From contig JAPDJU010000006.1 in the NCBI GenBank assembly GCA_029258915.1, positions 101,183 through 165,182 on the forward strand: a stretch of DNA of 64,000 bases. The letters run 5' to 3'. A program made the position numbers and the translations under genes. Within the stretch, counting starts at the first letter, position 1; every line of letters begins with the position of its first letter. The notes under the pieces were generated by a model that was given only the letters and a program-made list of their open reading frames with translations, was not told where the DNA came from and searched no databases. Positions 7,531 to 56,850 of the stretch are shown one piece after another. The stretch comes from Thermoproteota archaeon. GTDB lineage: Archaea > Thermoproteota > Thermoprotei_A > EX4484-217-1.

Positions 7531-10500
7531 TTACATTGTTCTAGCAATTTTACCTAGTCTAGGCTCGTATAGGCTTCCTTCTCTCCTCAGCTGGTCAAGT
7601 ATTTCCTCCACTTCCTTAGCATCTAAACCTGATTTTACGGCTTGCTCTATAACATCTGATTTCTTAACCTCGGCACCAGGGTATTCTTCAAGTTTTTCTA
7701 TGATCTCCATGACTTTCATGATTTTTAATCTTCTGCTGACAGGTTTACCTGTCATAATAATGTCTATATCTATAACCCCGGCTTCAATATCTAAACCTAC
7801 GTCTTTGAAGCTTCTAACCACTAGGTCTATTGCTGCCTTAGCGTCTTCAGCTGTTACTTCGTTTCTTAAAACCATTCTAGCATGTGCTTCTGCAAGCCTA
7901 ATTATTGCTTCCAGTTGTCTAGGTGTTATAGGTATTGGAGCATTTGGGTTTTCACTTGCCTTACTCCTTAAGTTAACGAAGAAATCTGAAATTATTTTTG
8001 CAGCCTCCTCAGTTAATCTTGGTTTCACATATTTCCTAGCATATCCGACATATTTTCTAAGTAACGATGGAGGTATTGGAGGTTTTACACGTTCATACTG
8101 CTTATGAACAGTAAGTATGTGAGACACTAGCTCCTCATCTGTTTGCGGCGCTGGCTTATCTCTCATTACAAATATTAGGTCAAACCTTGAGAGAATTGTT
8201 GGAGGCAAGTTTATGTTTTCAGTAAAGAGCCTGTCTTCAATGTACCTTCCAAACTTAGGATTACCTGCTGCAAGAATAGCTGTTCTAGCGTTAAGCCTAG
8301 CAACAATACCGGCTTTAGCTATACTTATGGTCTGCTGTTCCATTGCTTCATGAATAGCTACTCTATCTTCAGGCCTCATTTTGTCTATTTCATCGATAGC
8401 ACATATCCCTCCATCAGCTAAAACTAAGGCTCCAGCCTCTAAGAAGTAATCCCCAGTGGACTTATCTCTAATCACTGCTGCAGTTAATCCAGCGGCACTG
8501 CTACCCTTACCTGAAGTATATAGTCCTCTAGGAGCAATTCTTGCAATGTATTGGAGAATCTGGCTATTATGTAAGAATAGTAGGCCTAAGCCTCCTACGA
8601 AGTTTTCATTATCTTCAACTGAAATATCATAGACGAACCTATAATGTTCTGGTTCTATTTCTACTAGCGGTATTTCTTTTACTTCTTCTACAGTATCCCA
8701 CATTAAATTCTCATTTTTAACAATTTTCCTTAGACCATAAAGTAGTTCCTCACGTATATCTGTTAGCTGTGTGACGGTTCTAAGTATTTTTAGACCATAT
8801 TTTCTACCGACATAGCCTCTATAGATCTTTCCCCTAAACTCTGCACCTATTGGCCTAAGATCTCCTTTATTTAGACCTGCATTTTGTAGTATCCTTAAAA
8901 GTTCCTTACCTATAGGGACTCTGTCAACGTAGTCTGAAGACTTCTCCCTGGTTTTTCTAAGTTTTAATATTTTCTTTCCAACATTAATGTCGAATGTTTT
9001 CACAAGTTCTTCCATTTTAACAATATTTACTTCATAATACTCAATTTTTCTACCTTTATATTTAGTCTCTTTAATTCTTATTGTATATGGTAAGCCGAGT
9101 CTTGTAAGTAAAATGGTAATTCCATGAACAATGTTAATGCTTGTTGTTGATATTTTAACTTCCTTACACGTGGATTTATCTGAAATCCCTACATAACCAT
9201 CAGAATCTATGAGTCCAGAAAGTAATCCTATAACATAGTCTAAAGGAGCTATGTAAGAGAATTCTGGGATCTTCTTTAACCTTGACATGTAGCCTTTCTT
9301 TTTAACCTTATGCAGTATTGAGCAGTCTAAGTACATGTTTTTCTTGATCCATTCTACGAATTTAGCATCATCTACTATTAGCCTATAATTGTTAAGTTTA
9401 GATTCGTATATTTTACATTTGACTTTAAAGTATTTTTCAACTATGTTCTTTAATCTGTTAAGTGTAGTAGCATTATTAGATGATATTTCTATTCTTTCAC
9501 TACTAGAAATTAAGGTTAAGCTTCCATCTCCAAGAAAGTAGCCGAGGAAATAACCTATGTCTTCGTTTAACTTTATTTCCCCTAAGTTAGTATGTATAGT
9601 TGTTATTAATTGTTTCCTTAATATAGGAGCTTTCTTAAGCAATGGTATTAGTGATTTTTTCTCTAGTGCTTCTAGAGGTTTTACGGGTACTAATAAACCA
9701 TTTTCATACGCTATGAGACTATGGTCCTTTGTTATAATTGCCCTTCTACCATACTTGGTCTTCACAATTACAACTTTCTTGGGAGCTTTATGTCTGATAA
9801 GGCTCTTAATTGGCTTAATTTCAACCTTAAACGTTAAAGGATTAACAGAGAATGTGTAAAGGTTAACTCCTATCTTATTTAGGTTAAGTATTTCTGTTTC
9901 TTCATGTTTCTCAACAGCATATCTATGTTTTTCAATATATTTATCAACTAGTTTACCTATGGGTTCGTAATGTATGTAGCCGTTAGAATCCATGTATAAT
10001 ATCGGCTCACTAAACACTAAGCTCTTTGCTACACCGGGGTCTCCAACGAGGAGAATGTGTATATCTCCTCTTATCCTTGTTCCGTCAGGTAGTTCTTTAG
10101 GAACACCTCCGAAAAGCAGGAGTGCTATTGCTTTCTTAATATGGTTATAGCCGTGAATTGCGGGAGCTATTGACTGTACGATTTTCTCTCTAATTTTAAG
10201 ATCCTTAGCTAGCTCAAGTATTTTCCTTTCATCTTCTTTAGAAATCTCTATTTCTTCAAGAACCTTTTGTGAAACTTCAAGACTATTTGCCTCAATCTTC
10301 ATTTCAAACGTTAGTTTTGTTCCTTTCTTAACAGATCTTTCACCTTTAACCGTTAAAATTCCAACTACTGTAACTCTGTCTCCAGGCCTAGCTTTATCTA
10401 CAAGGTCCTCTAATAGTACGACTTCAACGGACCTAGGCATATGCCCTGGGGGTACATCTTCAGGTTTTTCTTGAACTATGATCTTCTGCATATTAATAAA

Positions 10501-11106
10501 TTTAGATTTGTGGAGGAGCAGTTTAAACTGAGGTCTAGCTTTACGGCTTTCTATTTTTGTTCTCTTTCTTTCCTCACAGAACCCGCAAAGTTCAGGGTAT
10601 TCTATGGTTTCTTCCTCCTGAAGAACTTCGGTTTCACTACCGCACTCTAGACATTTGAAAACAGCTTTGTACAATCTCTGGATAACAGGGGTCATTCTCG
10701 TAATAATACCTTCTATCTGAACAAGTCTCTCAATATGCTCCGCTCCTAATTTACGTATGGGTACTGTTCTAGGTAAATTCCTGAACCTTACATAGAATTT
10801 TTCTGTTCTTTCAACAAGTTCTGGGTTTTCGCCTCTAACAATATCTTTCAAGGCTTCAGAAGCATATTCTAAGGTTATTCTAGGTTCTTCTAAAACCTTT
10901 AAAGCTAGATCAGGTTTTGTAAGTAAAAGGTCAGGAAAATCAACTATGAGAGATTTCTCACCCTTAATAGCAATATCTAAAATTTTATTCCAATACTTTA
11001 GCTTACCTTGTTTGTCCTTGAATGTTTTAAAGAAGTCTCTAAACTGGAGTTTTAAATCTACTTCTTTGGCTTCAATCATAGGTGCTTCTACTTCTTCTAC
11101 CGTCAT
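7531..11106 (-). CDS. mcm: MCM replicative helicase, interrupted by an intein in the Walker A P-loop
   Basis: N-terminal zinc motif CLECG...CGFCEE; Walker A GDPGVAK split from [31 protein letters not shown] by 486 aa; Walker B and arginine-finger region follow. Confidence 0.9.
   Translation of the reverse strand: [1191 protein letters not shown]
8566..10023 (-). mobile_element. Intein with LAGLIDADG homing-endonuclease domain, inside mcm (residues 362-847)
   Basis: Begins with Ser after GDPGVAK, block B TKDH, two LAGLIDADG motifs ([10 protein letters not shown] and [10 protein letters not shown]), ends HN followed by Ser +1; removing it restores a canonical MCM P-loop. Confidence 0.8.
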
Positions 11107-11811: not shown

Positions 11812-12792
11812 GTGGCTAGTGTTGAAGTAGAATTATTATGGGCTGAAAAATATAGGCCGAAAACACTAGATGAAATAGTTAATCAGGAAGAAATAGTTAG
11901 GAGGTTAAAACAGTTCGTTAAAAGTAGGAACATGCCTCACTGCTTATTTGCCGGACCTCCAGGTACAGGGAAAACTACTGCTGCCCTAGCGTTAGCCCAT
12001 GACTTATATGGTTCAGGCTATGCACGTTATGTTCTAGAGCTAAATGCTAGCGATGCTAGAGGTATAGATGTTATAAGAACGACTGTTAAAGAGTTTGCTA
12101 GAAGTGTTGTTCCAGGACCTATACCTTTCAAAATAATTATCTTAGATGAAGCAGATAATATGACGGCTGATGCTCAGCAAGCTCTTAGAAGAACTATGGA
12201 GCTTTTCACTTCAACATGTAGATTTATACTTATTGCAAACTATCCTAGTAAAATAATTGAACCAATACAGTCTAGAACAGCATTTTTCAGATTTACACCT
12301 TTAAAGAAAGAGGATGTAGTTGCAAGGCTGAAATGGATAGCTGACCAAGAAAACGTAAAATATGATATGGAGGCTTTGGAAACAATATTTGAGCTTTCTG
12401 AAGGAGATATGAGAAGAGCAATAAACATTCTACAAGCAGCCTCAGCTTTAGGTAGAGTAACTGTTGAAGCAGTATACAAGGTCATAGGTGCAGCACATCC
12501 TACAGAAGTTAGAGAAATGATTAAAGCCGCTTTAGCAGGCAGGTTTACTGAGGCAAGGGAGAAACTTAGAGCATTAATGATAAACTACGGTCTTTCAGGT
12601 GTAGATGTTGTAAAAGCTTTACATAGAGAAATATTCAGTGCTGAACTTAAAATCCCTGAAGAATTAAAGGTCATTATCGCAGACTATCTAGGCGAAGTAC
12701 AGTATAGGCTTGCTGAAGGAGCAGACGATGAAATCCAGTTAAGTGCACTTATTGCACGTTTAGCTATGCTAGGTAAGAGGCTAAGGGTATAA
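11812..12792 (+). CDS. rfcS: Replication factor C small subunit
   Basis: N-terminal KYRP, Walker [14 protein letters not shown]-like [10 protein letters not shown] and sensor motifs; GTG start. Confidence 0.9.
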
Positions 12793-12796
12793 TATA

Positions 12797-14080
12797 ATGT
12801 CTACACGATTACCTTGGATAATAAAGTATAGACCCAAGAAAGTAGCTGAAGTAGTAGACCAAGACAATGCTAAAAAACAGTTTATACCATGGATTAAAGC
12901 ATGGATTGAAGGGAAAAAACAGGAAAAGAAAGCAGCACTACTTTATGGTCCTGCAGGTTGTGGTAAAACGTCTCTAGTAGAAGCAACGGCTAAAGAGTTT
13001 GGTTTAGAACTCATAGAAATGAATGCAAGCGATTTTAGAACAAGAGAAGCTATTGAAAGAATAGCTAAAGTTGCAGCAACAAAGTACTCACTATTCGGAT
13101 TTAGAAGCAAAATAATACTCCTTGATGAAATAGATGGATTAAACGCTATTGCTGATAGAGGAGCACTAAGTGCCGTACTGGATTTAATAGAAGCAACAAC
13201 TCATCCAATAGTTCTTACAGCTAACGATCCATGGGATCCTAAGCTTAGAAGTCTTAGAGACAAGTGTCTCTTAATAGCGTTTAGAAGGCTTCCTAAAAGG
13301 GCAGTTATTTTAATGCTTAAGAGAATATGTGAAAGTGAAAAGCTTATATGCGAATATAATGCCCTATCCTTGATTGCAGATTACGCCGAAGGAGATTTAA
13401 GATCAGCAATAAATGACTTACAAAATGTTGCAAGCATTAGCAAACATATAACATTAGAGGTTACCAAACCAATTTTAGCTAGGAGAGACCGCCAATATAC
13501 ACCATTTGAAGCTCTTAGAAGCCTATTCTTTTCTAAATACGCATGGCAAGCTAAGAAGGCAGTAACCTCTGCCGATATAGACTATGAAACTATGATGTTA
13601 TGGATAGCTGAAAATCTACCCTATCAATACACAGACCCTGAAGATCTATGGAGAGCTTATGAAGCATTAGCAAGAGCCGATGTTTACCTAGGCAGAGTAA
13701 AGAGAACTCAAAATTGGGATTTACTAGCATATGTTTTCGATTTAATGGGAGCAGGTGTAGCATTAGCACGTAGAAAAACTAAGTTTAAGTGGGTGAAGTA
13801 TTCATTTCCTCAAAAAATACTTCTCCTAGCTAAAACCAGGGGGCAAAGAGAAATTAGAGATGCAATAGCAAAAGTATTAGCAGGAGCATTACATATATCA
13901 TCTATTATAGCTAAAAGAGAAGTACTACCATTCTTAAGAATTATTTTCAATGAAAACCCCGAATATGCTGCTAGAATAGCTTTAGGTCTAAACTTAACAG
14001 AGTCAATGATAAAATTCCTTACACCTAAAAGATATCGTGAAGTTTTAAGGGAATTAGCTAAGTTAAAGAAAACTGCTTAA
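12797..14080 (+). CDS. rfcL: Replication factor C large subunit
   Basis: KYRP motif, Walker [11 protein letters not shown] and ILLDEID; follows rfcS by 4 nt. Confidence 0.85.
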
Positions 14081-14921
14081 AAACCGGTTTATCGTATTTA
14101 AAGTCTACATGTTCATAGAGAAATTTGAAAAGCATATGCTTAGTTGATTTTTTCATCCAATACTCTTTCATCTCCCTTACACTTTCTGAAATTACTTTAA
14201 AAGAGAATGGGTAAGTAATATCAAACAATATTAAGTTCTTCGGCGTTGCTGGTTTAACATCAGCTACTTCACATATACCTTTAAATGCTGTATTAAGGTC
14301 TTTTATAGACTTTTTGCCTGCAACATAAAGCTCTGTAAAAGAAACTATCCTTCTAACCATTTGCCTTAAGAAACTATCAGCTACAATGTCGAAAATCACT
14401 ATGTCATCTGTCTTAAATATGTTAAAACCGAGAATAGTTCTTTCAGTACTAATAAATTCTGGAACTTGAGAGTAAAGATATGAGCTAAAACATTTAAAGT
14501 CATGTTTACCTATAAACCTTTTAGCTATTTCAGATGCTTTATGAACATTAAATCCTCTAGCATATCTTACGTAAACGTATCTCCTACATATAGCATTAAA
14601 TCTTGGATTGAATTCGAAGTTAACAATTCTATAACCCCAAATAATGATGTCTACTGGGAGCTCTTCACGTACCTTACCAATTACTTCTTCAACTTTCTCC
14701 TCACCTACATCACGTACGGTTAACATAAAAACCTGAGATAAAGCATGAACTCCTTTATCTGTTCTTCCAGAAGCAACAAATTTCTCAAAGTTTAAGCCTA
14801 TATTTCTAAAAGCCTTAATTACCTCGCCTTCAACCGTTCTTAACCTAGGCTGCCTTTGTGAACCATGGAATAATGTTCCATCGTAGAAAACTTTAATTAA
14901 TAAATTGAAGACAGTGCTCAT
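14058..14921 (-). CDS. truA: tRNA pseudouridine(38-40) synthase TruA
   Basis: [12 protein letters not shown] and catalytic GRTDKGVHA motifs. Confidence 0.8.
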
Positions 14922-15745
14922 TTTTCACTAAACCTGATATGTATGTCAACCTCATTTATTATTTCTGGAACGCCTTTCAATGTGGTTAAATATCCTTTTA
15001 AAATACTCGTCAAGACCCGTTTAGGATAGGGTGTTAAGTGTATTCTCTTACCATTAACCTTAATGTCTACTGAAAGTTTTACAGGGCAGTCTACAAGGTT
15101 CTTCTCTCCTTTAAGCATAGCATAGGTAAAGTCTTTACATGAGGAATAACCGCAAAGACCACAGTCGGTTCCCGGCAGGTCTGCTAGAATTTTGTTTATA
15201 GAATAATGAACTATATCGTCAACTAGCTGCTCTATATCATTGAATGTGTATTTTTTGCATGTAATGTTTTCCGGTAGTTCACATGGATATTTGCAAACGA
15301 TAGCCATACAGTCTTTCATAACGTTTACTAGGCCCTTTAATTCGCTAGGATTTTCTAGTACGATAATTTTAGGATATCCTTTAATCCTCTTGAAACCTTC
15401 AACTATAACTATATTTTCCTTTATCGGCAACATCTGGATAATAGACTCTACTTCCATATTTCTTTTAGTGAAAAAACCTATTTCGTCTTCAGACACTAGT
15501 ACAATGGTTTCTGCACCAGCTTTTTTATATCGTTCAGAATCTTTTCCATGAACATCTATTCTGTGGTATGCGTGTTTTATAATTGCGGTTCTGAAGCCTC
15601 TTACTTTAAGCTCATTAACTATTTTAGTACCTAATGCTGTTTTTCCAACACCCTTTTTCGCAGATATGATTTGTATAATGGCTTTACCTAGTATCAACCG
15701 TTCTCTCCTCGTTAAGAATTCAGTTAAAGTTATTTTAAATTTCAC
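14918..15745 (-). CDS. mobB: MobB-like P-loop protein with a C-terminal Cys-rich (putative Fe-S) domain
   Basis: P-loop SAKKGVGKT and MobB-like IVEGFK in the N-terminal half; C-terminal CxxC-rich segment TDCGLCGYSSC...DCP. Confidence 0.55.
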   Translation of the reverse strand: MKFKITLTEFLTRRERLILGKAIIQIISAKKGVGKTALGTKIVNELKVRGFRTAIIKHAYHRIDVHGKDSERYKKAGAETIVLVSEDEIGFFTKRNMEVESIIQMLPIKENIVIVEGFKRIKGYPKIIVLENPSELKGLVNVMKDCMAIVCKYPCELPENITCKKYTFNDIEQLVDDIVHYSINKILADLPGTDCGLCGYSSCKDFTYAMLKGEKNLVDCPVKLSVDIKVNGKRIHLTPYPKRVLTSILKGYLTTLKGVPEIINEVDIHIRFSEK

Positions 15746-15944
15746 CTAACTCTTCAAGAAACCTTTTAATAGCTAATGTAAACGGGTTTCCATAGTTTAT
15801 TTCGTAAATTAGTATTTTACCATACTTTTTCTTTTTTACAATACCATATTTTTCAAGAACATCTAAGTGTTCTTTAGCATTCTGATGGTGTATATCGAGT
15901 TTCTTAGCAATAGCTGTTATGTTTGCTGACTCATGTTTAATCAT
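15735..15944 (-). CDS. Small winged-helix transcriptional regulator (ArsR-like)
   Basis: 69-aa ORF with an HTH-like core IAKKLDIHHQNAKEHLDVLEKYGIV; overlaps the mobB-like start. Confidence 0.45.
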   Translation of the reverse strand: MIKHESANITAIAKKLDIHHQNAKEHLDVLEKYGIVKKKKYGKILIYEINYGNPFTLAIKRFLEELGEI

Positions 15945-16010
15945 AAACTTTAATATCCTTACTCTATTTTTTGACGATAAAATTTTTTCAATTATTTCTA
16001 ATCATCCCCA

Positions 16011-17276
16011 TTATCGCTTATGCGTATATTGTTCAATAAGTTTCAAAACCTCCTTTTCTAACTGATCTAATGGAACATTAAATATTCCTATAAGCGTACT
16101 TCTCCCTCTATAACCTTTGCCCGAAGTTTTTGTATCAATAAGTCCTCGTTGCTTAAGATCCCTTATGTACTCGTAAACTTGAGTATGACCCCTAGATCTT
16201 TCACCGAAAATTTCACATAACATTTCATATTCGCTCTCAACATCACCTATTCTAACATATTGTCTTCCAGAGCGTTTTAAGGCCTTAATCGCTGCAGCAT
16301 ATATGAGTAGTTCATGTAATGGTAGGTGAAGTATCATATCTTTAGCTATTATCATGTAGCTTGAGCTTTCAATTCCAGCTAAGCTTGCATATGCTTTCCT
16401 TAGATGCTCTAATGTAACTCGAGGGCTTCCTTCATAATCTGCAGCTTCACCTGCTCTAAGAAGAAGCTCAATTGCTGCTCTCGCGTTTCCATCACCTCCT
16501 TTATCAACACCCACTATTTCCGCAATAGCGCTGATTACATCTTCTTCAACTGTTCCTTCCCAGAAAGCAAGTTTCATACGTTGTTTTAAAATGTCTTTAA
16601 GTTCTTTTGAAGTATATGGTTTAAAAGCTATCATGTGTCTTAGAAGATAGCTTGATGTTGCCGAGTCTAAACTGTTAAGTTCTGTTAAACTTCTACCTAT
16701 AAGGACAAAGCTTATTCTTTTAGTGTATTCAGGATACTCATCATAGGTTCTTATAAAGAAGTATAGTGCATCGCTACCTGAAACTTTAACAAAGTAATCA
16801 AACTCGTCGAGAGCAAGTATTACGTAAATGTCGTTGTCTTCAAGGTATTCTAATATGGCTGCATAAAGTTCAAATGCTGAAAGACCTCTTTGGGGTAAAG
16901 GTATTCTTAAGTGTTTTGCTATTTCCATTACAACGTTATATACTGTTCTATCTCTATGGCAGTTAACGTGAATATACTGTAGGTTTATTCCTTTACTTTT
17001 AGCTTTAAGTGTAAAAACATTTCCGAAAGTCCTAGCAGTAACAGTTTTACCAACACCTACAGGTCCATGAAGGAAAACTCTCTGACTAATGCTTCCAGGA
17101 CTATAGAGCAAAGGTTTAAAATACTGTGCCAAAAGCCTAATTTGCTCTTCCCTATAAGGCAAGCTTGGAGGAATATATTCCGGATAAAGTTTTTCCTTAG
17201 CTTTAAACACTGAAGGTTTACTTAAAACACCCTCAATAATTTCCTCAGTACCAACAAACTTTTTATACTCACTCAC
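16011..17276 (-). CDS. orc1: Orc1/Cdc6 replication initiator
   Basis: AAA+ Walker A GPVGVGKT, Walker B LDEFD and a C-terminal winged-helix region; GTG start. Confidence 0.9.
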   Translation of the reverse strand: MSEYKKFVGTEEIIEGVLSKPSVFKAKEKLYPEYIPPSLPYREEQIRLLAQYFKPLLYSPGSISQRVFLHGPVGVGKTVTARTFGNVFTLKAKSKGINLQYIHVNCHRDRTVYNVVMEIAKHLRIPLPQRGLSAFELYAAILEYLEDNDIYVILALDEFDYFVKVSGSDALYFFIRTYDEYPEYTKRISFVLIGRSLTELNSLDSATSSYLLRHMIAFKPYTSKELKDILKQRMKLAFWEGTVEEDVISAIAEIVGVDKGGDGNARAAIELLLRAGEAADYEGSPRVTLEHLRKAYASLAGIESSSYMIIAKDMILHLPLHELLIYAAAIKALKRSGRQYVRIGDVESEYEMLCEIFGERSRGHTQVYEYIRDLKQRGLIDTKTSGKGYRGRSTLIGIFNVPLDQLEKEVLKLIEQYTHKR

Positions 17277-17442
17277 TAGTACCCACCATTCTATAGTTTC
17301 GGTAAACCCCTCATAGATTATTTAACGGTTTCTGCCAGTCTCCCCGTAATAATTTTTACCTTATTTAAAATAGACTATTCGCTTAAATGCATACTTAGAG
17401 TATTTTAGTAATTATGAAAACTTCCAAATATTATGAGAACCT

Positions 17443-17556
17443 CTATTCTGGTTCTATGATTACGATTACTTTCACTTTCTTTCCGTGATGTTTCTTTAGC
17501 TTCTCTTGGTACTCCTTCGGCGGGTATATAATATATCTTCCTCCACCATACTTCAT
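17443..17556 (-). CDS. Possible 37-aa AbrB/MazE-like small protein; unsupported short ORF
   Basis: Own translation MKYGGGRYIIYPPKEYQEKLKKHHGKKVKVIVIIEPE loosely matches the swapped-hairpin AbrB consensus; too short to appear in the ORF track. Confidence 0.25.
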   Translation of the reverse strand: MKYGGGRYIIYPPKEYQEKLKKHHGKKVKVIVIIEPE

Positions 17557-17617
17557 TATCTTGGCATCAAAACTGTATACGTAACTCATAGTGTCACCGA
17601 AGAAATAATTTGAGACT

Positions 17618-17632
17618 AAAGCTTATAAATTT
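17618..17632 (+). promoter_or_regulatory. Candidate BRE/TATA promoter for tnpB
   Basis: aaagcttataaattt lies about 30-45 nt upstream of the ATG at 17664 and is embedded in the inverted repeat TGAGAC...GTCTCA. Confidence 0.3.
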
Positions 17633-17663
17633 GTCTCACAAACTTATTATTGGTAGCCAGGGG

Positions 17664-18893
17664 ATGAGGGTCAGAGTAACTGCTAGGGTGAAAGCGGTTA
17701 TCCCTAACCCTAGCTACTATCATAAACTAATAGAGTTCTTAAGGGCATACCGTGATTGGACACAATACGTAGTAAATGAGATATGGAATTTAAACTATAT
17801 ACCATCAATGAAAGAATTACATTATAGATTCTACAAGGTATTGAGGCAACAAGGTTTTAGAGCACATCATTGTCATAAGATTGAGAGGAGAGCTAGAGAA
17901 GTAGTTAAAGCTACTAAGAAGAACAACGGAAGTAAACCAATTCTTAGGAAACTAACAGCTAGACTAGGTTGCCAAGATTACAAGTTAAACATGCAGGATA
18001 AAGTACTAAGAATAGCTGCCTTAAACAATGAATGGGTAGAGTTGGAACTACTATGGTATGAATATCTAGACAAATACTTTAACGATGGATGGAAGCTAAA
18101 GGAAATACTCGTTAGCTACCGTGAGAATGAAATGTGGGTCTACTTCACCTTCGAGAAGGAAGTAGTGCTTGGACAGCCGAGAACCGTTATGGGCGTAGAC
18201 ATTAATTTCAACAATATAACGTACACCATAATCGATATGAATGGTAAGCTCGTAACTATGGGTGTCATACCGTTTAATGGACTGAAGAAAGCGTTGGCTC
18301 ATAGGATTATTGCTGAGAAAATTCAGAGAAAGCATTCTAAGAAGTGGAGGTATGTCAAGGGGATAAGAGAATCCATAAGGAAGCACGGTAGGAGAGCAAG
18401 AAACATTCTTGTTGATTCATGCCACTACATATCAAGGAGGATAGTAGAGATAGCTAAGGAGTACAATACACTAACTGTCCTAGAGAACTTAAACAAACTT
18501 AGAATTAGAGCTAATGGGTCTAGGAGATATAATAAGAAGCTATCGCTGTGGACATACCGCAGAATACAGACCTATATCTACTACAAGGCATTAGTTAAGG
18601 GTGTTCCAGTAATTCATGCTGATCCGAGAAACACTTCTAAAAAATCACCCATAGGGAGAAAGCTTACGTTCAACAACTATAGATGGGCTAAGCTACCTAA
18701 CGGACATATTGTTACTAGAGATGCAGTTGCTTCATGGAATTTAGCACTTAAAGGTCTTAAGTTTCTAACCAGAGATGTGGGGTCTCGTGGTTTCGTGGAG
18801 ACCCCGAAAGCCCCTAACCAGATGCAAACCCAAGAAGGGATGAAGGGGATGCCCGAGCAAGTTTCCAAAATATCTATAATCACCAAAAGATAA
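17664..18893 (+). CDS. tnpB: IS200/IS605-family TnpB-like RuvC nuclease (OrfB) with degenerate zinc finger; no tnpA
   Basis: RuvC-I GVDINF, RuvC-II TVLENL and RuvC-III TRDAVASWNLA all present; the CxxC...CxxC zinc-finger cysteines are absent. ATG at 17664 preferred over the TTG at 17610. Confidence 0.7.
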   Translation: MRVRVTARVKAVIPNPSYYHKLIEFLRAYRDWTQYVVNEIWNLNYIPSMKELHYRFYKVLRQQGFRAHHCHKIERRAREVVKATKKNNGSKPILRKLTARLGCQDYKLNMQDKVLRIAALNNEWVELELLWYEYLDKYFNDGWKLKEILVSYRENEMWVYFTFEKEVVLGQPRTVMGVDINFNNITYTIIDMNGKLVTMGVIPFNGLKKALAHRIIAEKIQRKHSKKWRYVKGIRESIRKHGRRARNILVDSCHYISRRIVEIAKEYNTLTVLENLNKLRIRANGSRRYNKKLSLWTYRRIQTYIYYKALVKGVPVIHADPRNTSKKSPIGRKLTFNNYRWAKLPNGHIVTRDAVASWNLALKGLKFLTRDVGSRGFVETPKAPNQMQTQEGMKGMPEQVSKISIITKR

Positions 18894-22187: not shown

Positions 22188-22388
22188 GTGAAGAACATGG
22201 TAAGTTATCATTACATTGATGCTATAATAACCTTCATCCTCCTCTGCCTATCAATGATAACTGGTATACTCTTATTACTTGTAAAAAACCTTAAAGTAAG
22301 AAGAACTATACTGATATTACACATAATCTTCTCTATGTCAGCGTTCATAGCCTTTGTTATAACATTTCTAAGAGCTCCAAGAATCTAA
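22188..22388 (+). CDS. Small membrane protein (66 aa, two predicted TM helices)
   Basis: ORF only; hydrophobic. Confidence 0.3.
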   Translation: MKNMVSYHYIDAIITFILLCLSMITGILLLLVKNLKVRRTILILHIIFSMSAFIAFVITFLRAPRI

Positions 22389-22478
22389 TGAGAATTGTAA
22401 TTCATAGTTAAGGTTAAGTGTTCTTTTAAATATGCTCTACACTTATTTTGGAGTGAGAAAAATTATCTGGGGAAATAT

Positions 22479-23993
22479 ATGAAACTTATTGGTGTTGTAG
22501 GTAGCGGCTCTACAATAGTATACGCTCCTCTCATAGTTTATGAAGAAGCTGAAAAATATGCTAAGGAAGAACAGCTCGTTATTATTGAAGACACATGGAG
22601 AAACATAAAGTTTCTAGGTATTTTAAGAAATGTTAAAAGATATGAGCCATTCTTAAACATATACCGTAGAACGAGTTTCGTAGATAATCCATCGCTTGTA
22701 GAAAGTGGTACATTACCCCATACCGGAGCTTATATTTCAATCATAGGAGCACTTAGAGCTTTTAAGCTAGAGAGTGTAGAAATACCTCCAAATCCTGGTT
22801 CCAGAGTTTACGTTGTAGAGGGTAAAGAAGATTTGAAAGTTAACTTAGGTAGGGGTCTTGTAGTTGGTGTTCATAAGTATAGCGGTGTTGAAATACCTTT
22901 AACCCCTGAAAGCATACCTTTTCACGTAGCTGTTGTTGGAGCTACTGGAACAGGTAAGTCAAGACTTGTAAAAGCACTCATAGATGAAATACTTAACGAA
23001 ACAGGCTATAGAGTTATTGTTTTCGATCATGCAGGAGTAGATTATGTCCCATACTATAGAGACTACGTTGCCCAGGCTTCTAAAATAGTCTTAGATGTTT
23101 CGGTGATCTCTGATCTAATACTTGAGAGAACAGGGCTAGACCGTAGAACATATGAATCCTATATTTTACTTTCAACCCTATGGTATGCTTTTAACAAAGT
23201 ATTTCCAAAGCTGAGTAGAGAGGAAATAGAAAAGCTCGGAGTAGCTGAGCTTCGAAAAGGCTTTACATATAATGTTTTATCTAAATTAGTAAGCTTAATA
23301 GATTATGGTGAATTAACAAGGTTCATGGCGAAATACCCTATAGAATGGAGGTCATCAGAATATAGGGATTATGCTTTAAAAGTAATTGATCTTTTAAAGG
23401 GGAGAGAAAGTGCTAAAGTAAGACTTGGAATATCATTAGATGTTAGATTGGGTGAAGGGTTTTTCAAATCATTAAGCGGAAGAAATGTTCTGCCATCAGA
23501 CATAGTTGATTTAGCGTTTAGACAAAAACTTGTTGTCATAGATTTGAGCATGGAAGACCCTATTGTTAAGAAGTATGTTGTTTCAACAGTAATCAATGAA
23601 GTTTGGAAAAAAGTAGAAGAAAAACAAGAATCAGTAAACATTGTTGCTGTAATCGATGAAGCACACAACTATGCATGTAGATACTGCGGCGAACCACACA
23701 AAGCCATAACTAGAACATCTAGGGAAGGTAGGAAATGGGGTTTCGGATTAATACTTGCAACTCAAAGAGCAATAGACATAGACCCTGAGATTAGAGGAAA
23801 CATTAACACATGGTTCTTCAGTAAACTTCAAACACCATCGGACTTTAACGAAATATCGGCATTCATGAATCTTGCAGGAATAAGCGAATCTTCGCTAGCC
23901 ATTTTGGAGAAAAGAGAATTCTACATAGCAGGCCTCATGAACCCGTTAAGAATTCCTGTTTTAATTAAAGTAAAAGAGGTACCTTTACCATGA
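22479..23993 (+). CDS. herA: HerA-type (FtsK/HerA superfamily) hexameric DNA helicase/ATPase
   Basis: HAS-barrel-like N-terminus, Walker A VVGATGTGKSR, Walker B VIDEAHNY and C-terminal ILATQRAIDID. Confidence 0.7.
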   Translation: MKLIGVVGSGSTIVYAPLIVYEEAEKYAKEEQLVIIEDTWRNIKFLGILRNVKRYEPFLNIYRRTSFVDNPSLVESGTLPHTGAYISIIGALRAFKLESVEIPPNPGSRVYVVEGKEDLKVNLGRGLVVGVHKYSGVEIPLTPESIPFHVAVVGATGTGKSRLVKALIDEILNETGYRVIVFDHAGVDYVPYYRDYVAQASKIVLDVSVISDLILERTGLDRRTYESYILLSTLWYAFNKVFPKLSREEIEKLGVAELRKGFTYNVLSKLVSLIDYGELTRFMAKYPIEWRSSEYRDYALKVIDLLKGRESAKVRLGISLDVRLGEGFFKSLSGRNVLPSDIVDLAFRQKLVVIDLSMEDPIVKKYVVSTVINEVWKKVEEKQESVNIVAVIDEAHNYACRYCGEPHKAITRTSREGRKWGFGLILATQRAIDIDPEIRGNINTWFFSKLQTPSDFNEISAFMNLAGISESSLAILEKREFYIAGLMNPLRIPVLIKVKEVPLP

Positions 23994-25162
23994 TAAGTGA
24001 AGAACGTGTTCCTGAAGAGGTTTTCGAAGAACCAGTAGTTTCTCTAGCTAAAGAAACTGTAGCTTTAGAAGCTAAAAGAATAGCAAGTATTGCTAGTAGC
24101 GAAAGATTAAGGGAAATAAGGAGCAAACTTGAAAGCCAAGGACTAATATTTAGAATTTCCAAAAGAAAACCTCATAAAATATGTAGTGTTGCATTAGATA
24201 CAAGCTTCACGGATCCACCATTAGAACTAACTGGAGGTAAATTAATAACAGTTATAAGATCCCATATATTTTACGGCTGCAGGCCTAAGAAAAATTCTAG
24301 AGCAGATAGTAAAGGGTTTTTAAGATTTGTTCAAGAATTCGAAGATTTAGCTAAAGTGTACTCTAAAATTATTGAGAGAAAATTTGTGATAGAACTCCTC
24401 AGAGATGTTAAAAACGGAAGAGAACAATTAGACCTAGTAATGATTGATGGAGAAATTTTCCCAAGAATACCTCCTGCACTAAGATTTAGAAAGCATGGTA
24501 CAATATCTAGGTTATATCAGAAGTACTTAGATTTAACAGGGGAAATGCTTGAATTAGCAGATGAAACCGATGTAGCGATAGTCGGTATTGTTAAAAGAGC
24601 TTATGGACTAGATATACCTATTGTAGCGGATATGCCGGGTCTAAATATTAATGATAAAGCTCTCGCAACGTACATATTAAATCCTGGGGAATGGATTGAT
24701 CTAAAATCGTACTCTGAAGTAGCTTGCTACATAGAGGAGTTCATTAAGAAACATGAAAATGAACTTCCAAAAAGCACTCTTAGAAGACTTAGGGAGAGAG
24801 ATCGATGGATTGTTGGCGTACTTGAATATGTAGACCGTGCTCCAGATGTTGAGCTTGCCGTTTACAAGTCTTCTACACCAACTTTCTTCATGTTAGCTAC
24901 CAAGGTTGAATTATTTATAAGCCAGAAACTCCTGAAAGAACAAATAATATCTTATCTATCTAACATAACAGGAATCAATGGAGTACCTCATCCAATAGAC
25001 CTTGTAGATTCTATGTGTAGGATAACACCTGACTTGCTCCAAATATTTCAGCAACAACTGTACAAAGAGCTTATGGTTAAGCTTAAAGATCAAAAGTTGG
25101 CTATGAGCTTAGCTGGCTTAATAAACCCTGAAAAAATGTATAGAATAGGGTTTAAGGGTTAG
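23990..25162 (+). CDS. nurA: NurA-like 5'-3' nuclease
   Basis: NurA-type acidic motifs (VALDTSF, DLVMIDGEI); start overlaps the herA stop by 4 nt (ATGA). Confidence 0.6.
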   Translation: MISEERVPEEVFEEPVVSLAKETVALEAKRIASIASSERLREIRSKLESQGLIFRISKRKPHKICSVALDTSFTDPPLELTGGKLITVIRSHIFYGCRPKKNSRADSKGFLRFVQEFEDLAKVYSKIIERKFVIELLRDVKNGREQLDLVMIDGEIFPRIPPALRFRKHGTISRLYQKYLDLTGEMLELADETDVAIVGIVKRAYGLDIPIVADMPGLNINDKALATYILNPGEWIDLKSYSEVACYIEEFIKKHENELPKSTLRRLRERDRWIVGVLEYVDRAPDVELAVYKSSTPTFFMLATKVELFISQKLLKEQIISYLSNITGINGVPHPIDLVDSMCRITPDLLQIFQQQLYKELMVKLKDQKLAMSLAGLINPEKMYRIGFKG

Positions 25163-26787: not shown

Positions 26788-26890
26788 TACGGTTTCACCA
26801 GAATAAACTATAGGTAAGTACCTCTTAAAATGTAATATTATTAGAAGAGAAATAGAAAACTAATTGACTATAAACATTGTTGTAAGCGAA

Positions 26891-28940: not shown

Positions 28941-29477
28941 ATGCCAGTATTGGATTCTGTTTTCTCACTTACTCCTTCAGCAAACACTACTTTTACCTTA
29001 CTAGCATACTTAATCCCAGTACTCGGAATATTAATTGCAACTAACATTATGATTATTAGGAGCAAGGCAATTAAAGGTTTATATCCCATATTAGTAGGCT
29101 ATTTAATAGTAGGTTTAGTTTTTGGTGCATGCTTAATCCCCCAACTTTACTTTTCAAAAATAATTGTAGGTGAGGGGTTCGTTGAAGCTTATGTTTCAGG
29201 AATAATTCCTCTACATAGGAAGGTGTTTAGAGAACACATTGAAAATGCCTATGTATGTGATGTAGATACATGTTTAGGAGGTTTCAGCTATAGAACTTGG
29301 GGAACAAGTATTGGAAACTTTGCTGTAGGGTATTTTAAACTTCCAAACGGCAAAGAAGCCTATGTTGCATCCATAGATTCTCATGGAGAGAACATAATTG
29401 TTGAACTTAAGGATGGAACATATTTAGTATTAAAACCTTCTAACTTCAAAGAATTCTTAAAAGTATTTTCAAAGTAA
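28941..29477 (+). CDS. Membrane protein with C-terminal soluble domain; unknown function
   Basis: Two N-terminal TM helices, then a Cys-containing domain ending EAYVASIDSHGENIIVELKDGTYLVLKPSNFKEFLKVFSK. Confidence 0.4.
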   Translation: MPVLDSVFSLTPSANTTFTLLAYLIPVLGILIATNIMIIRSKAIKGLYPILVGYLIVGLVFGACLIPQLYFSKIIVGEGFVEAYVSGIIPLHRKVFREHIENAYVCDVDTCLGGFSYRTWGTSIGNFAVGYFKLPNGKEAYVASIDSHGENIIVELKDGTYLVLKPSNFKEFLKVFSK

Positions 29478-30677: not shown

Positions 30678-31157
30678 TTATGTGGTAATTTTACTTAAGA
30701 TTCTTAGGGATATGTAGAATAGGGGTAGTGCTATATATCCTAGTAGAGCTTCAGCTCTTAGAAAACCCATTACTAGCTCCTCGTAGGCTATAGGTTCACC
30801 TACAATAATACCGTCAAGCCATGAGGCTATAATGACAAGTACTTGCATCACCATAGCGGCTACAGCTAAACCTAAACCTAAAGTAGTTGCTGCTAAGCTC
30901 TTTACCGGTTTTCTCTTAAACCAGTAATATGCTGATAAAATCATTAAGAAACCTATAGATAACATTACTAAGCTTATACCTAAGTCTCCCGGTATATAAT
31001 CTGAGTACAAGAACTCTCCTGCCCCAGTAGTTCCTAAATACCAGTTAATAATAGCTATAAAACCTGCTACTGAGTACACTAAGCCTAGCACAACTTCTAT
31101 AGGAATTATAACATATATGTAACGTTTAAATATACCCTTACTATTTTCCATAATCAA
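30678..31157 (-). CDS. Membrane protein of unknown function, downstream of feoB
   Basis: 159-aa hydrophobic ORF with about four TM helices. Confidence 0.4.
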   Translation of the reverse strand: MIMENSKGIFKRYIYVIIPIEVVLGLVYSVAGFIAIINWYLGTTGAGEFLYSDYIPGDLGISLVMLSIGFLMILSAYYWFKRKPVKSLAATTLGLGLAVAAMVMQVLVIIASWLDGIIVGEPIAYEELVMGFLRAEALLGYIALPLFYISLRILSKITT

Positions 31158-55791: not shown

Positions 55792-56850
55792 CTATAGTGA
55801 AACCTCAGGTAAGCCAATAAGTTTTCTAACAGCATTAACCTTAGCTAGTGCAAGTTTTTCTCCGAAACTTCTTTTAGGATATGGCCTATGAGTTACGCTT
55901 AACACTATTTTCCTGGGCCCATGCTTATCTAGCATTTTCTTAACAACTTTAACAAAGTCTTTAACATCAATGCTATCGTTTAAGACGAGGTCTATTGAAA
56001 CACCTGTATGGAAAACTGCTTTCCAACCTATATCCCTTCTAGCTTTAGAAACTCTATTTACCCAGTTTAATGCTGCTTCCACGGTGCTTTTACTGCAAAG
56101 ATCTAAAGGATGTATTCCATCATATATTTCAGCTAGTTTCCGTATGTATCCTAACTTAGTAACATCACCATCACAATGTAGGATGGCTTTTTTACCTTTG
56201 GCTTTAACAGCATTGACAAATATTCTATGCCATTTAAGATAGCAATTATCCATAAACCATGTAGGATATATTGGACTACTATAGGTAAACGCGTCATCAG
56301 CTATTCTAACAGCATCAACGATATCTAGTTCTCTAGCATATTTTATTACCTCTAAAATATACTTCGCCAGTTTATCATACAGTTTAATTGCTTTTTTACG
56401 GTTAAGCAGGAGTAGTTTTGAAAAATCTAAGTTATGATAAGCTAAATCATACTTATAGCCGCTTTCAGGCCTAGGAGGCATCATAGAATATTCAGAGTAT
56501 TCTGTAGGACCCACTACTTCAAAAACTATAAACAAATCCTTCCCATAGAAAGGTTCAACATTTTCCTTAAACCCCTTAACACAAGAATCTACTACATCAC
56601 TTTCACTAGGCCAGCTATAATCTGTTTCAACATCTAATCTCTCAACCCATTCAAGTAAACTTTCACCTTCACGCCTACGAAACGGTCCGCCACTGTAAAA
56701 CCAGTCTTCCCATAGATAAACCCATCCATGGCCTAAAAGCACATCCCCAAGTTTTGCTTCATGATTCTTCTCAATACTTTCAAAATGCAATGGCAAACGA
56801 TCGTAAAAAACATCTTCATAAACAGCATATACCAAGTCTCTACTTTTCAC
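55792..56850 (-). CDS. Uroporphyrinogen decarboxylase-family protein (MtaA/CmuA-like methylcobamide methyltransferase)
   Basis: N-terminal DRLP motif and ILHCDGD segment consistent with the URO-D fold. Confidence 0.55.
   Translation of the reverse strand: MKSRDLVYAVYEDVFYDRLPLHFESIEKNHEAKLGDVLLGHGWVYLWEDWFYSGGPFRRREGESLLEWVERLDVETDYSWPSESDVVDSCVKGFKENVEPFYGKDLFIVFEVVGPTEYSEYSMMPPRPESGYKYDLAYHNLDFSKLLLLNRKKAIKLYDKLAKYILEVIKYARELDIVDAVRIADDAFTYSSPIYPTWFMDNCYLKWHRIFVNAVKAKGKKAILHCDGDVTKLGYIRKLAEIYDGIHPLDLCSKSTVEAALNWVNRVSKARRDIGWKAVFHTGVSIDLVLNDSIDVKDFVKVVKKMLDKHGPRKIVLSVTHRPYPKRSFGEKLALAKVNAVRKLIGLPEVSL

Follow-up and report, generated by a model that had tools for sequence, protein, structure and literature searches.

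The window analysed here is a 64 kb stretch (64,000 nt) of archaeal chromosome DNA with a GC content of about 35-36% (contig JAPDJU010000006.1), and this report concerns one pair of overlapping genes in it, herA-like and nurA-like, which encode a HerA-like ATPase and a NurA-like nuclease. The two open reading frames (ORFs), taken from the ORF listing, and their junction, read directly from the sequence, are located as follows:

22479-23993, + strand: ORF A, herA-like ATPase gene, 504 aa
23990-25162, + strand: ORF B, nurA-like nuclease gene, 390 aa
23990-23993, + strand: ATGA stop/start overlap of the herA-like and nurA-like genes

The initial annotation had described two genes overlapping by ATGA, and the coordinates are exact. 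A GAGG motif resembling a Shine-Dalgarno sequence is present at 23976-23979, 10 nt 5' of the overlap. On the other side, an aldehyde dehydrogenase gene is convergent with ORF B and overlaps its 3' end by 4 nt. No Metallophos (Mre11) or SMC/Rad50 domain was found in the scanned window ORFs of at least 188 aa, and tblastn of the window with Mre11, Rad50 and canonical NurA queries gave no match; the only ORFs of at least 600 aa in the window encode MCM and FeoB. The earlier statement that mre11 and rad50 are missing from these 64 kb was thus borne out by the domain scans and by tblastn. The window also gave no tRNAs, Rfam RNAs or CRISPR-like arrays, and no cas or CARF domains were found in its scanned ORFs.

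ORF A passed the Pfam model of the HerA central domain (PF01935) with 59 bits against a cutoff of 23.2, and its best match among PDB sequences was HerA of Sulfolobus solfataricus (E 1e-17). The Pfam HAS-barrel model PF09378 had no match in ORF A. The AlphaFold2 (AF2) monomer model of the ATPase had a predicted local distance difference test score (pLDDT) of 91.5, and its secondary-structure layout has the HerA architecture of HAS-type barrel, RecA core and helical bundle, with an N-terminal beta-barrel at residues about 1-112, a RecA-type core and a helical-bundle insert at about 207-349. The top Foldseek matches of this model were S. solfataricus HerA (4d2i; E 3e-25, 20% identity) and Thermococcus kodakarensis HerA (9x1m_A), with E values of about 1e-25 and template modelling (TM) scores of 0.60-0.66 for the two structures. 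There were three conserved ATPase motifs: Walker A (GATGTGKS, residues 154-161), Walker B (DEAH, 393-396) and REGRKWG (415-420), which is in the arginine-finger region, and all of them were invariant across 44 family ATPases in the family alignment. ORF A is a HerA-like ATPase of a distinct paralog family, apparently of the hexameric-translocase type; by its likeness to HerA it would form a ring and translocate double-stranded DNA.

Directly after the Walker B DEAH there is a Cys-x-x-Cys pair, C400/C403 (window 23676-23687, DEAHNYACRYCGEP), which is near-invariant in the family. Canonical HerA, in contrast, has no Cys pair at the corresponding stretch (IEEAHVFLSKNEN). The pair could be a family-specific metal or redox site.

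ORF B passed the Pfam NurA model PF09376 marginally (25 bits, cutoff 21), and the other nucleases of its family scored 42.7-91.5 bits with the same model. ORF B itself had no match in NCBIfam, PADLOC or PDB sequences. Its structure model is confident and has the NurA-type RNase-H-like fold. Because PDB sequence searches found no NurA, the link of ORF B to NurA needed Pfam together with fold comparison.

Several residues were invariant in 40 family nucleases, namely D70, E129, D153-G154, K202-R203, N221-D222-K223 and P333/D337/D340, the last three sitting within the GVPHPIDLVD motif of ORF B. In the model D70, E129, D153, K202 and D337/D340 are placed on strand 1, helix 1, strand 4, strand 5 and the last helix, respectively. 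The catalytic set of S. solfataricus NurA is D58, E116, D133, K202 and H306 (PMC3326311, PMC3300031), and the invariant residues of ORF B have the same order and approximate spacing. The canonical GYPYPLxxAH motif corresponds to GVPHPIDLVD in ORF B, where Asp replaces His. This replacement also occurs in other RNase-H-fold relatives, and His411 is conserved only in Thermotoga maritima EndoV (PMC3300031). On these sequence and model features ORF B is likely a competent nuclease; we say only likely because the profile-profile comparison with canonical NurA was weak, though both K202 residues align. The herA and nurA names given to the two genes at first stand for superfamily and fold, and they do not stand beyond that level.

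The divergence of the two proteins is extreme, the ATPase having 21-24% identity to canonical HerAs and the nuclease lacking a profile-based link by hidden Markov models (HMMs) to solved NurAs, and this would be expected if the pair had arisen by duplication of a repair pair and were now decaying or catalytically dead. But neither the ATPase motifs nor the candidate catalytic residues vary among 40-44 diverse sequences, nearly all family loci keep intact reading frames, and both structure models are confident. Compared with the closest relative, the ratio of synonymous to non-synonymous codon changes was 86:31 and 76:31 for the two genes, about 2.5-2.8:1, and both genes are clearly under purifying selection. 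We regard a dead remnant as very improbable.

The ATPase had 354 detectable relatives in a set of 5.8 billion proteins. The best of them was 91% identical, and the remaining ones were 36-62% identical and belonged to Desulfurococcaceae, Ignisphaera, Thermogladius, Thermosphaera and others; in their records they are named only "ATP-binding protein" or "HerA-like ATPase". An identical protein is also found on a metagenome-assembled contig of 58.9 kb (ERZ25515786). The nearest relatives (91-92% identity) are metagenomic too and have the same synteny as the window, while the best match in a collection of species-representative genomes was 61% identical. An exhaustive profile search of 1.84 billion representatives showed a sharp family edge, with 55 representatives at E<=1e-30 followed by a long tail, so the family consists of about 55 representative clusters at 50% identity. 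Scanning the species-representative genomes gave 80 family loci, which span Desulfurococcales, Ignisphaera, Thermogladius, Pyrodictiaceae, Caldivirga, Vulcanisaeta, Thermocladium, Pyrobaculum, Thermoproteus and Thermofilaceae.

Seventy-one related loci had enough flanking sequence to be informative for adjacency, and the herA-like and nurA-like genes were adjacent in 64 of them. The nurA-like gene was immediately downstream on the same strand in 59 of the 71 and adjacent in another orientation in five. Among the 59 same-strand loci, the candidate start of the nurA-like gene overlapped the herA-like stop or was within 30 nt of it in 51. This pairing is far beyond chance. No mre11 or rad50 was found within 10 kb in 81 family loci. 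These counts come from a survey of neighbourhoods in related genomes, which had been proposed as a check of the pair. A third co-conserved gene was sought in the family loci and none was found, the recurrent neighbours reflecting lineage-specific (genus-level) synteny and generic ABC transporters. The flanking neighbours are housekeeping genes and their synteny is stable within lineages. Only one weak relative was detected in 2.9 million viral contigs.

Divergent arrangements were also observed. Two metagenome-assembled genomes (MAGs), labelled Woesearchaeota (L067) and Undinarchaeota (L078), carry a family member with the nurA-like gene divergently upstream, and the same holds for a MAG labelled uncultured Thermoproteaceae (L075). 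The two DPANN-binned cases are explained by horizontal transfer or by mis-binning.

It is usual to regard HerA-NurA as a single system linked to Mre11-Rad50, and annotation tends to label such pairs "DSB repair" (double-strand break repair). The pair in the window could in principle be the canonical repair pair of this organism with mre11 and rad50 elsewhere in the genome, which was one of the two readings initially offered. Both proteins have HerA and NurA folds, one NCBI record calls a family member "DNA double-strand break repair nuclease NurA", and the source DNA is a metagenome contig and not a whole genome. However, the window ATPase reached only 71.9 bits in a partial match to the NCBIfam model HerA_Thermprot (NF040937), whose cutoff is 800, and 46.5 bits in a partial match to helicase_HerA (NF040819). 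When the HerA_Thermprot model was calibrated, S. solfataricus HerA scored 881 bits and operon-linked HerAs of other Thermoproteota scored 457-498 bits over the full model, whereas members of the window's family had 59-66 bits or no match. PF09378 and PF05872 are absent from the listed family members and are carried by most canonical HerAs.

The phylogeny gave the same separation. Full-length canonical HerAs were obtained by searching with PDB-derived segments of S. solfataricus HerA, and a neighbor-joining (NJ) tree was built from 47 sequences and 444 columns with 100 bootstraps. The window's family was supported with a bootstrap of 99, the family together with an unnamed sister clade with 100, and the canonical clade with 100. 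The window protein shared 37-92% identity with family members and 21-24% with canonical HerAs, and branching within the family roughly matches taxonomy. The nearest outgroup clades in the search of 1.84 billion proteins were unnamed HerA-like groups, none of them canonical HerA by NCBIfam. Canonical-clade HerAs were found in mre11-rad50 operons in all nine loci examined, in the orders herA-mre11-rad50-nurA, nurA-herA-mre11-rad50, mre11-rad50-nurA-herA and herA-mre11-rad50. The HerA phylogeny proposed at the outset has thus been made, and the window protein did not group with these operon-linked HerAs.

Both types also occur in what appears to be one genome. In MAG GCA_964613695.1, contig CAZTIR010000002 has a canonical herA-mre11 operon with a 911-aa gene after it, and contig CAZTIR010000005 has a member of the window's family; the tetranucleotide correlation of the two contigs (r 0.87) is compositionally compatible. 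Pyrobaculum genomes likewise hold at least three pairs, including a separate homologous recombination (HR) ortholog (PMC3396285). Because of the low HerA_Thermprot score and the separate clade, we reject the canonical pair with unlinked partners, and only a very small chance is left to it. The other reading initially offered, a paralogous module, which may have a different role, is supported, and the related MAG carries the family and canonical types together.

The metagenome assembly of the closest relative also contains a contig with a canonical operon (L085). It was considered as part of the same organism and ruled out, since its tetranucleotide r was 0.73, compared with 0.985 for the true relative.

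The sister clade (P0192 group) is 23-27% identical to the ATPase family and also has a NurA-domain gene immediately after it (L097 5001-7732, Logan ERR15087786 contig). That pair is within a unidirectional block of short hypothetical genes (DUF2201, DUF6166, HD), which looks like a virus or an integrated element.

From these results we propose that the window pair is a paralogous HerA-type ATPase with a NurA-type nuclease, most likely an ATP-driven DNA translocase-nuclease, and that it represents an old, vertically inherited Thermoproteota family which is distinct from, and coexists with, the Mre11-Rad50-linked pair. We give this reading a probability of roughly 0.7. Vertical inheritance is indicated because the branching approximates taxonomy, the housekeeping synteny is lineage-specific and viral contigs contained one weak relative. 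By analogy with the solved HerA-NurA complexes, DNA would enter the central channel of the ATPase ring by an end and be driven through it to a NurA-like dimer, which would sit on the face of the N-terminal barrels and cut the strands. The formation of such a complex, its stoichiometry and its DNA substrate are all presumed here, as is a role in genome maintenance rather than in defence.

Genome maintenance is favoured by the housekeeping genes around the pair, whose synteny is stable within lineages, by a tree that is close to taxonomy and by the near absence of the family from viral contigs. These same observations speak against a module for defence against viruses or plasmids, which would destroy linear DNA on its entry and be comparable with Sir2-HerA, HerA-DUF4297, TdpAB and nurA-csm6-herA. 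Such a module would be in line with the fact that anti-phage HerAs and TdpAB are structural neighbours of the ATPase, with the canonical T. kodakarensis complex, which degrades both strands and for which an antiviral role has been proposed (PMC12977600), and with the occurrence of the sister clade's pair in an apparent mobile element. But the anti-phage HerA models NF042943 and NF042944 gave only 59.1 and 51.7 bits against cutoffs of 800 and 850, and domain scans of ORFs and a repeat search found no Sir2, DUF4297, csm6, CRISPR array or dnd-type gene near the pair. PADLOC HerA models matched the ATPase partially (49-76 bits), and the partner nuclease has a NurA fold and no PADLOC match. We therefore consider defence unlikely, though it deserves more weight than the other alternatives.

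Several points weigh against the paralogous translocase-nuclease we propose. The profile-HMM search of the nuclease and of its family profile against PDB sequences recovered no NurA, and hhalign against four canonical NurAs gave a short weak match with a probability of 14.5%, in which K202 aligned with K202 of S. solfataricus NurA. The equivalence of the active sites at the level of residues would follow from motif order and fold. The nurA-like gene was absent from the flanks in seven of the 71 informative loci, all of them in Pyrodictiaceae or Vulcanisaeta, where the neighbours were ABC transporters and others; because of these seven loci, it may be that the ATPase can also work by itself or with a partner encoded elsewhere. 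Coexistence of the two types was observed in a MAG, which is possibly mis-binned. The biological role suggested for the pair comes from its context, the family is without experimental characterisation in the literature, and in the literature searched genes of the PAE2154/2155 type, which are discussed below, are mentioned in one paper only (PMC3396285).

If the proposed reading is right, the family might be an ancient second HerA-NurA machine which is independent of Mre11-Rad50 and has its own non-redundant job, distinct from the canonical repair pair and from the CRISPR-linked pair. We offer this wider reading tentatively, as somewhat short of an even chance. The job could be, for example, the processing of DNA ends associated with replication or recombination, or the clearance of linear foreign DNA. 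That the sister clade is virus-like hints at an early exchange of the module between chromosomes and mobile elements. Recognising a well-delimited paralog family across most Thermoproteota orders prevents mis-annotation, and the family is a natural comparison in the debate on whether archaeal HerA-NurA serves end resection or wholesale DNA destruction.

Upstream of the pair there were two further features, of which the first comes from the ORF listing and the second was read from the sequence:

22188-22388, + strand: small ORF, 66 aa, with two hydrophobic segments
22424-22433, + strand: candidate archaeal TATA box, TTTTAAATAT

The small ORF and the herA-like gene are separated by 90 nt, and the TATA-like box is inside this interval, 46-55 nt 5' of the herA-like start codon, and is identical in the closest relative. 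If functional, it would give the pair a promoter of its own on the downstream side of the small ORF. In two independent gene calls the small ORF was passed over in favour of a short antisense ORF. It is kept in the closest relative (L095, 91%) with six synonymous and four non-synonymous changes (P=0.014), so that a coding function is modestly supported. No homolog cluster of it was found among the family loci, and a hydrophobic small ORF was upstream in only five of 68 testable family loci, the window included. The "small membrane-protein gene" first noted before the pair is thus real as an ORF with two hydrophobic stretches, and it is not part of the conserved module. It may be a genuine lineage-specific small membrane protein outside that module.

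This small ORF, with its two predicted transmembrane segments and apparent purifying selection in the window's lineage, might be taken as the anchor of a pump at the membrane that imports or exports DNA in the manner of Ced, conjugation or FtsK systems, and the ATPase does have weak matches to TrwB, FtsK, VirB4, CedB and CedD models. The scores are far from those of true members, however, with 31.5 bits for CedB (NF041017, cutoff 700) and 51.1 bits for CedD (NF053655, cutoff 600). In addition, the conserved partner is a nuclease and not a membrane protein, conservation of the pair does not extend to the small ORF, a promoter-like element stands between the small ORF and the pair, and the best structural matches are soluble HerA rings. 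A pump is therefore a quite improbable explanation.

The window also encodes an intein-containing MCM, the RFC small and large subunits, Orc1/Cdc6 and many biosynthetic and transport genes. The MCM gene (7531-11106, - strand, 1191 aa) has an intein with a LAGLIDADG homing-endonuclease domain in the P-loop domain. RFC small and large subunits, Orc1/Cdc6 and MCM are within about 10 kb (window 11812-17276 listed), and this cluster of replication genes suggests that the window is near a replication origin. A quick repeat search of 15700-17650 gave no convincing set of repeats like origin recognition boxes (ORB). Between Orc1/Cdc6 and a THUMP gene there is a TnpB/Cas12f-like gene (IS200/605 OrfB-type; 17610-18893, + strand), which is absent from the syntenic 91%-identical relative (L095 1-1400) and so is a recent insertion by the probable origin region. 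In the same relative an extra two-gene insert, a DUF6036 gene and a 129-aa ORF, is present between the aldehyde dehydrogenase and DUF2095 genes (L095 8984-10050). It is absent from the window (about 26790-26890) and looks like a toxin-antitoxin pair. Three other window ORFs had no Pfam match at E<=1e-5: 55792-56850 (- strand, 352 aa), 28941-29477 (+ strand, 178 aa) and 30678-31157 (- strand, 159 aa).

Among known systems, the canonical HerA-NurA pair (SSO2251/SSO2248; PDB 4d2i and 2ygk; T. kodakarensis 9x1l-9x1n) has the same ATPase architecture as the window pair, with N-terminal barrel, RecA core and helical bundle. Its NurA has in common with the window nuclease the RNase-H-like fold and, judged by motif order, a putative acidic D-E-D set with Lys and a C-terminal (G)xPxP...H/D motif, and tight coupling of the two genes is also common to both. 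The identities are low, about 20-24% for the ATPase and 10-13% for the nuclease. Unlike the canonical pair, the window pair has the order herA then nurA with an overlapping junction and shows no mre11-rad50 linkage in 81 loci, and at the presumed last catalytic position the window nuclease has Asp (D337/D340) where canonical NurA has His.

The bacterial anti-phage systems Sir2-HerA and HerA-DUF4297 use Sir2 or DUF4297 as effector, whereas the partner in the window is NurA-like. TdpAB, which senses phosphorothioate, differs in that we found neither close TdpA/TdpB similarity nor dnd-type linkage, and the window is without phosphorothioation genes. In contrast with these systems, the window pair has a housekeeping context and its inheritance appears vertical.

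Multiple nurA-herA paralogs in Thermoproteales have been known since 2012, and the window pair is a further member and not a new kind of system. Pyrobaculum genomes have at least three nurA-herA pairs, which are the HR ortholog, a CRISPR-associated nurA-csm6-herA cluster and an uncharacterised third group, PAE2154/2155 (Bernick et al. 2012, PMC3396285), and the third group is unlinked in Vulcanisaeta (Vdis_1272/Vdis_1306) (PMC3396285). The CRISPR-associated cluster (PAE0122-PAE0128) is likewise a non-canonical HerA/NurA paralog pair in the same phylum, but it has csm6 between the genes and is beside CRISPR arrays, while the window genes overlap directly. No array-like tandem repeats were found in the window or in the Pyrobaculum locus of the family (L056). 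At that locus the two genes are directly adjacent with no array near, the NurA Pfam match has an E value of 8e-26, and the ATPase is 23% identical to SSO2251 (pairwise E 3e-9, about 1e-5 when scaled to a proteome). In the Vulcanisaeta locus (L055) the nurA-like gene is not adjacent. Because the genes are adjacent without an array, resemble SSO2251 weakly, give a comparatively strong NurA Pfam match and are unlinked in Vulcanisaeta, the family best fits the third Thermoproteales group PAE2154/2155; this equivalence is drawn from context and similarity pattern and not from the PAE2154/2155 sequences. The study that reported that group covered Thermoproteales only (PMC3396285), whereas the family described here also reaches Desulfurococcales, Ignisphaera, Pyrodictiaceae and Thermofilaceae.

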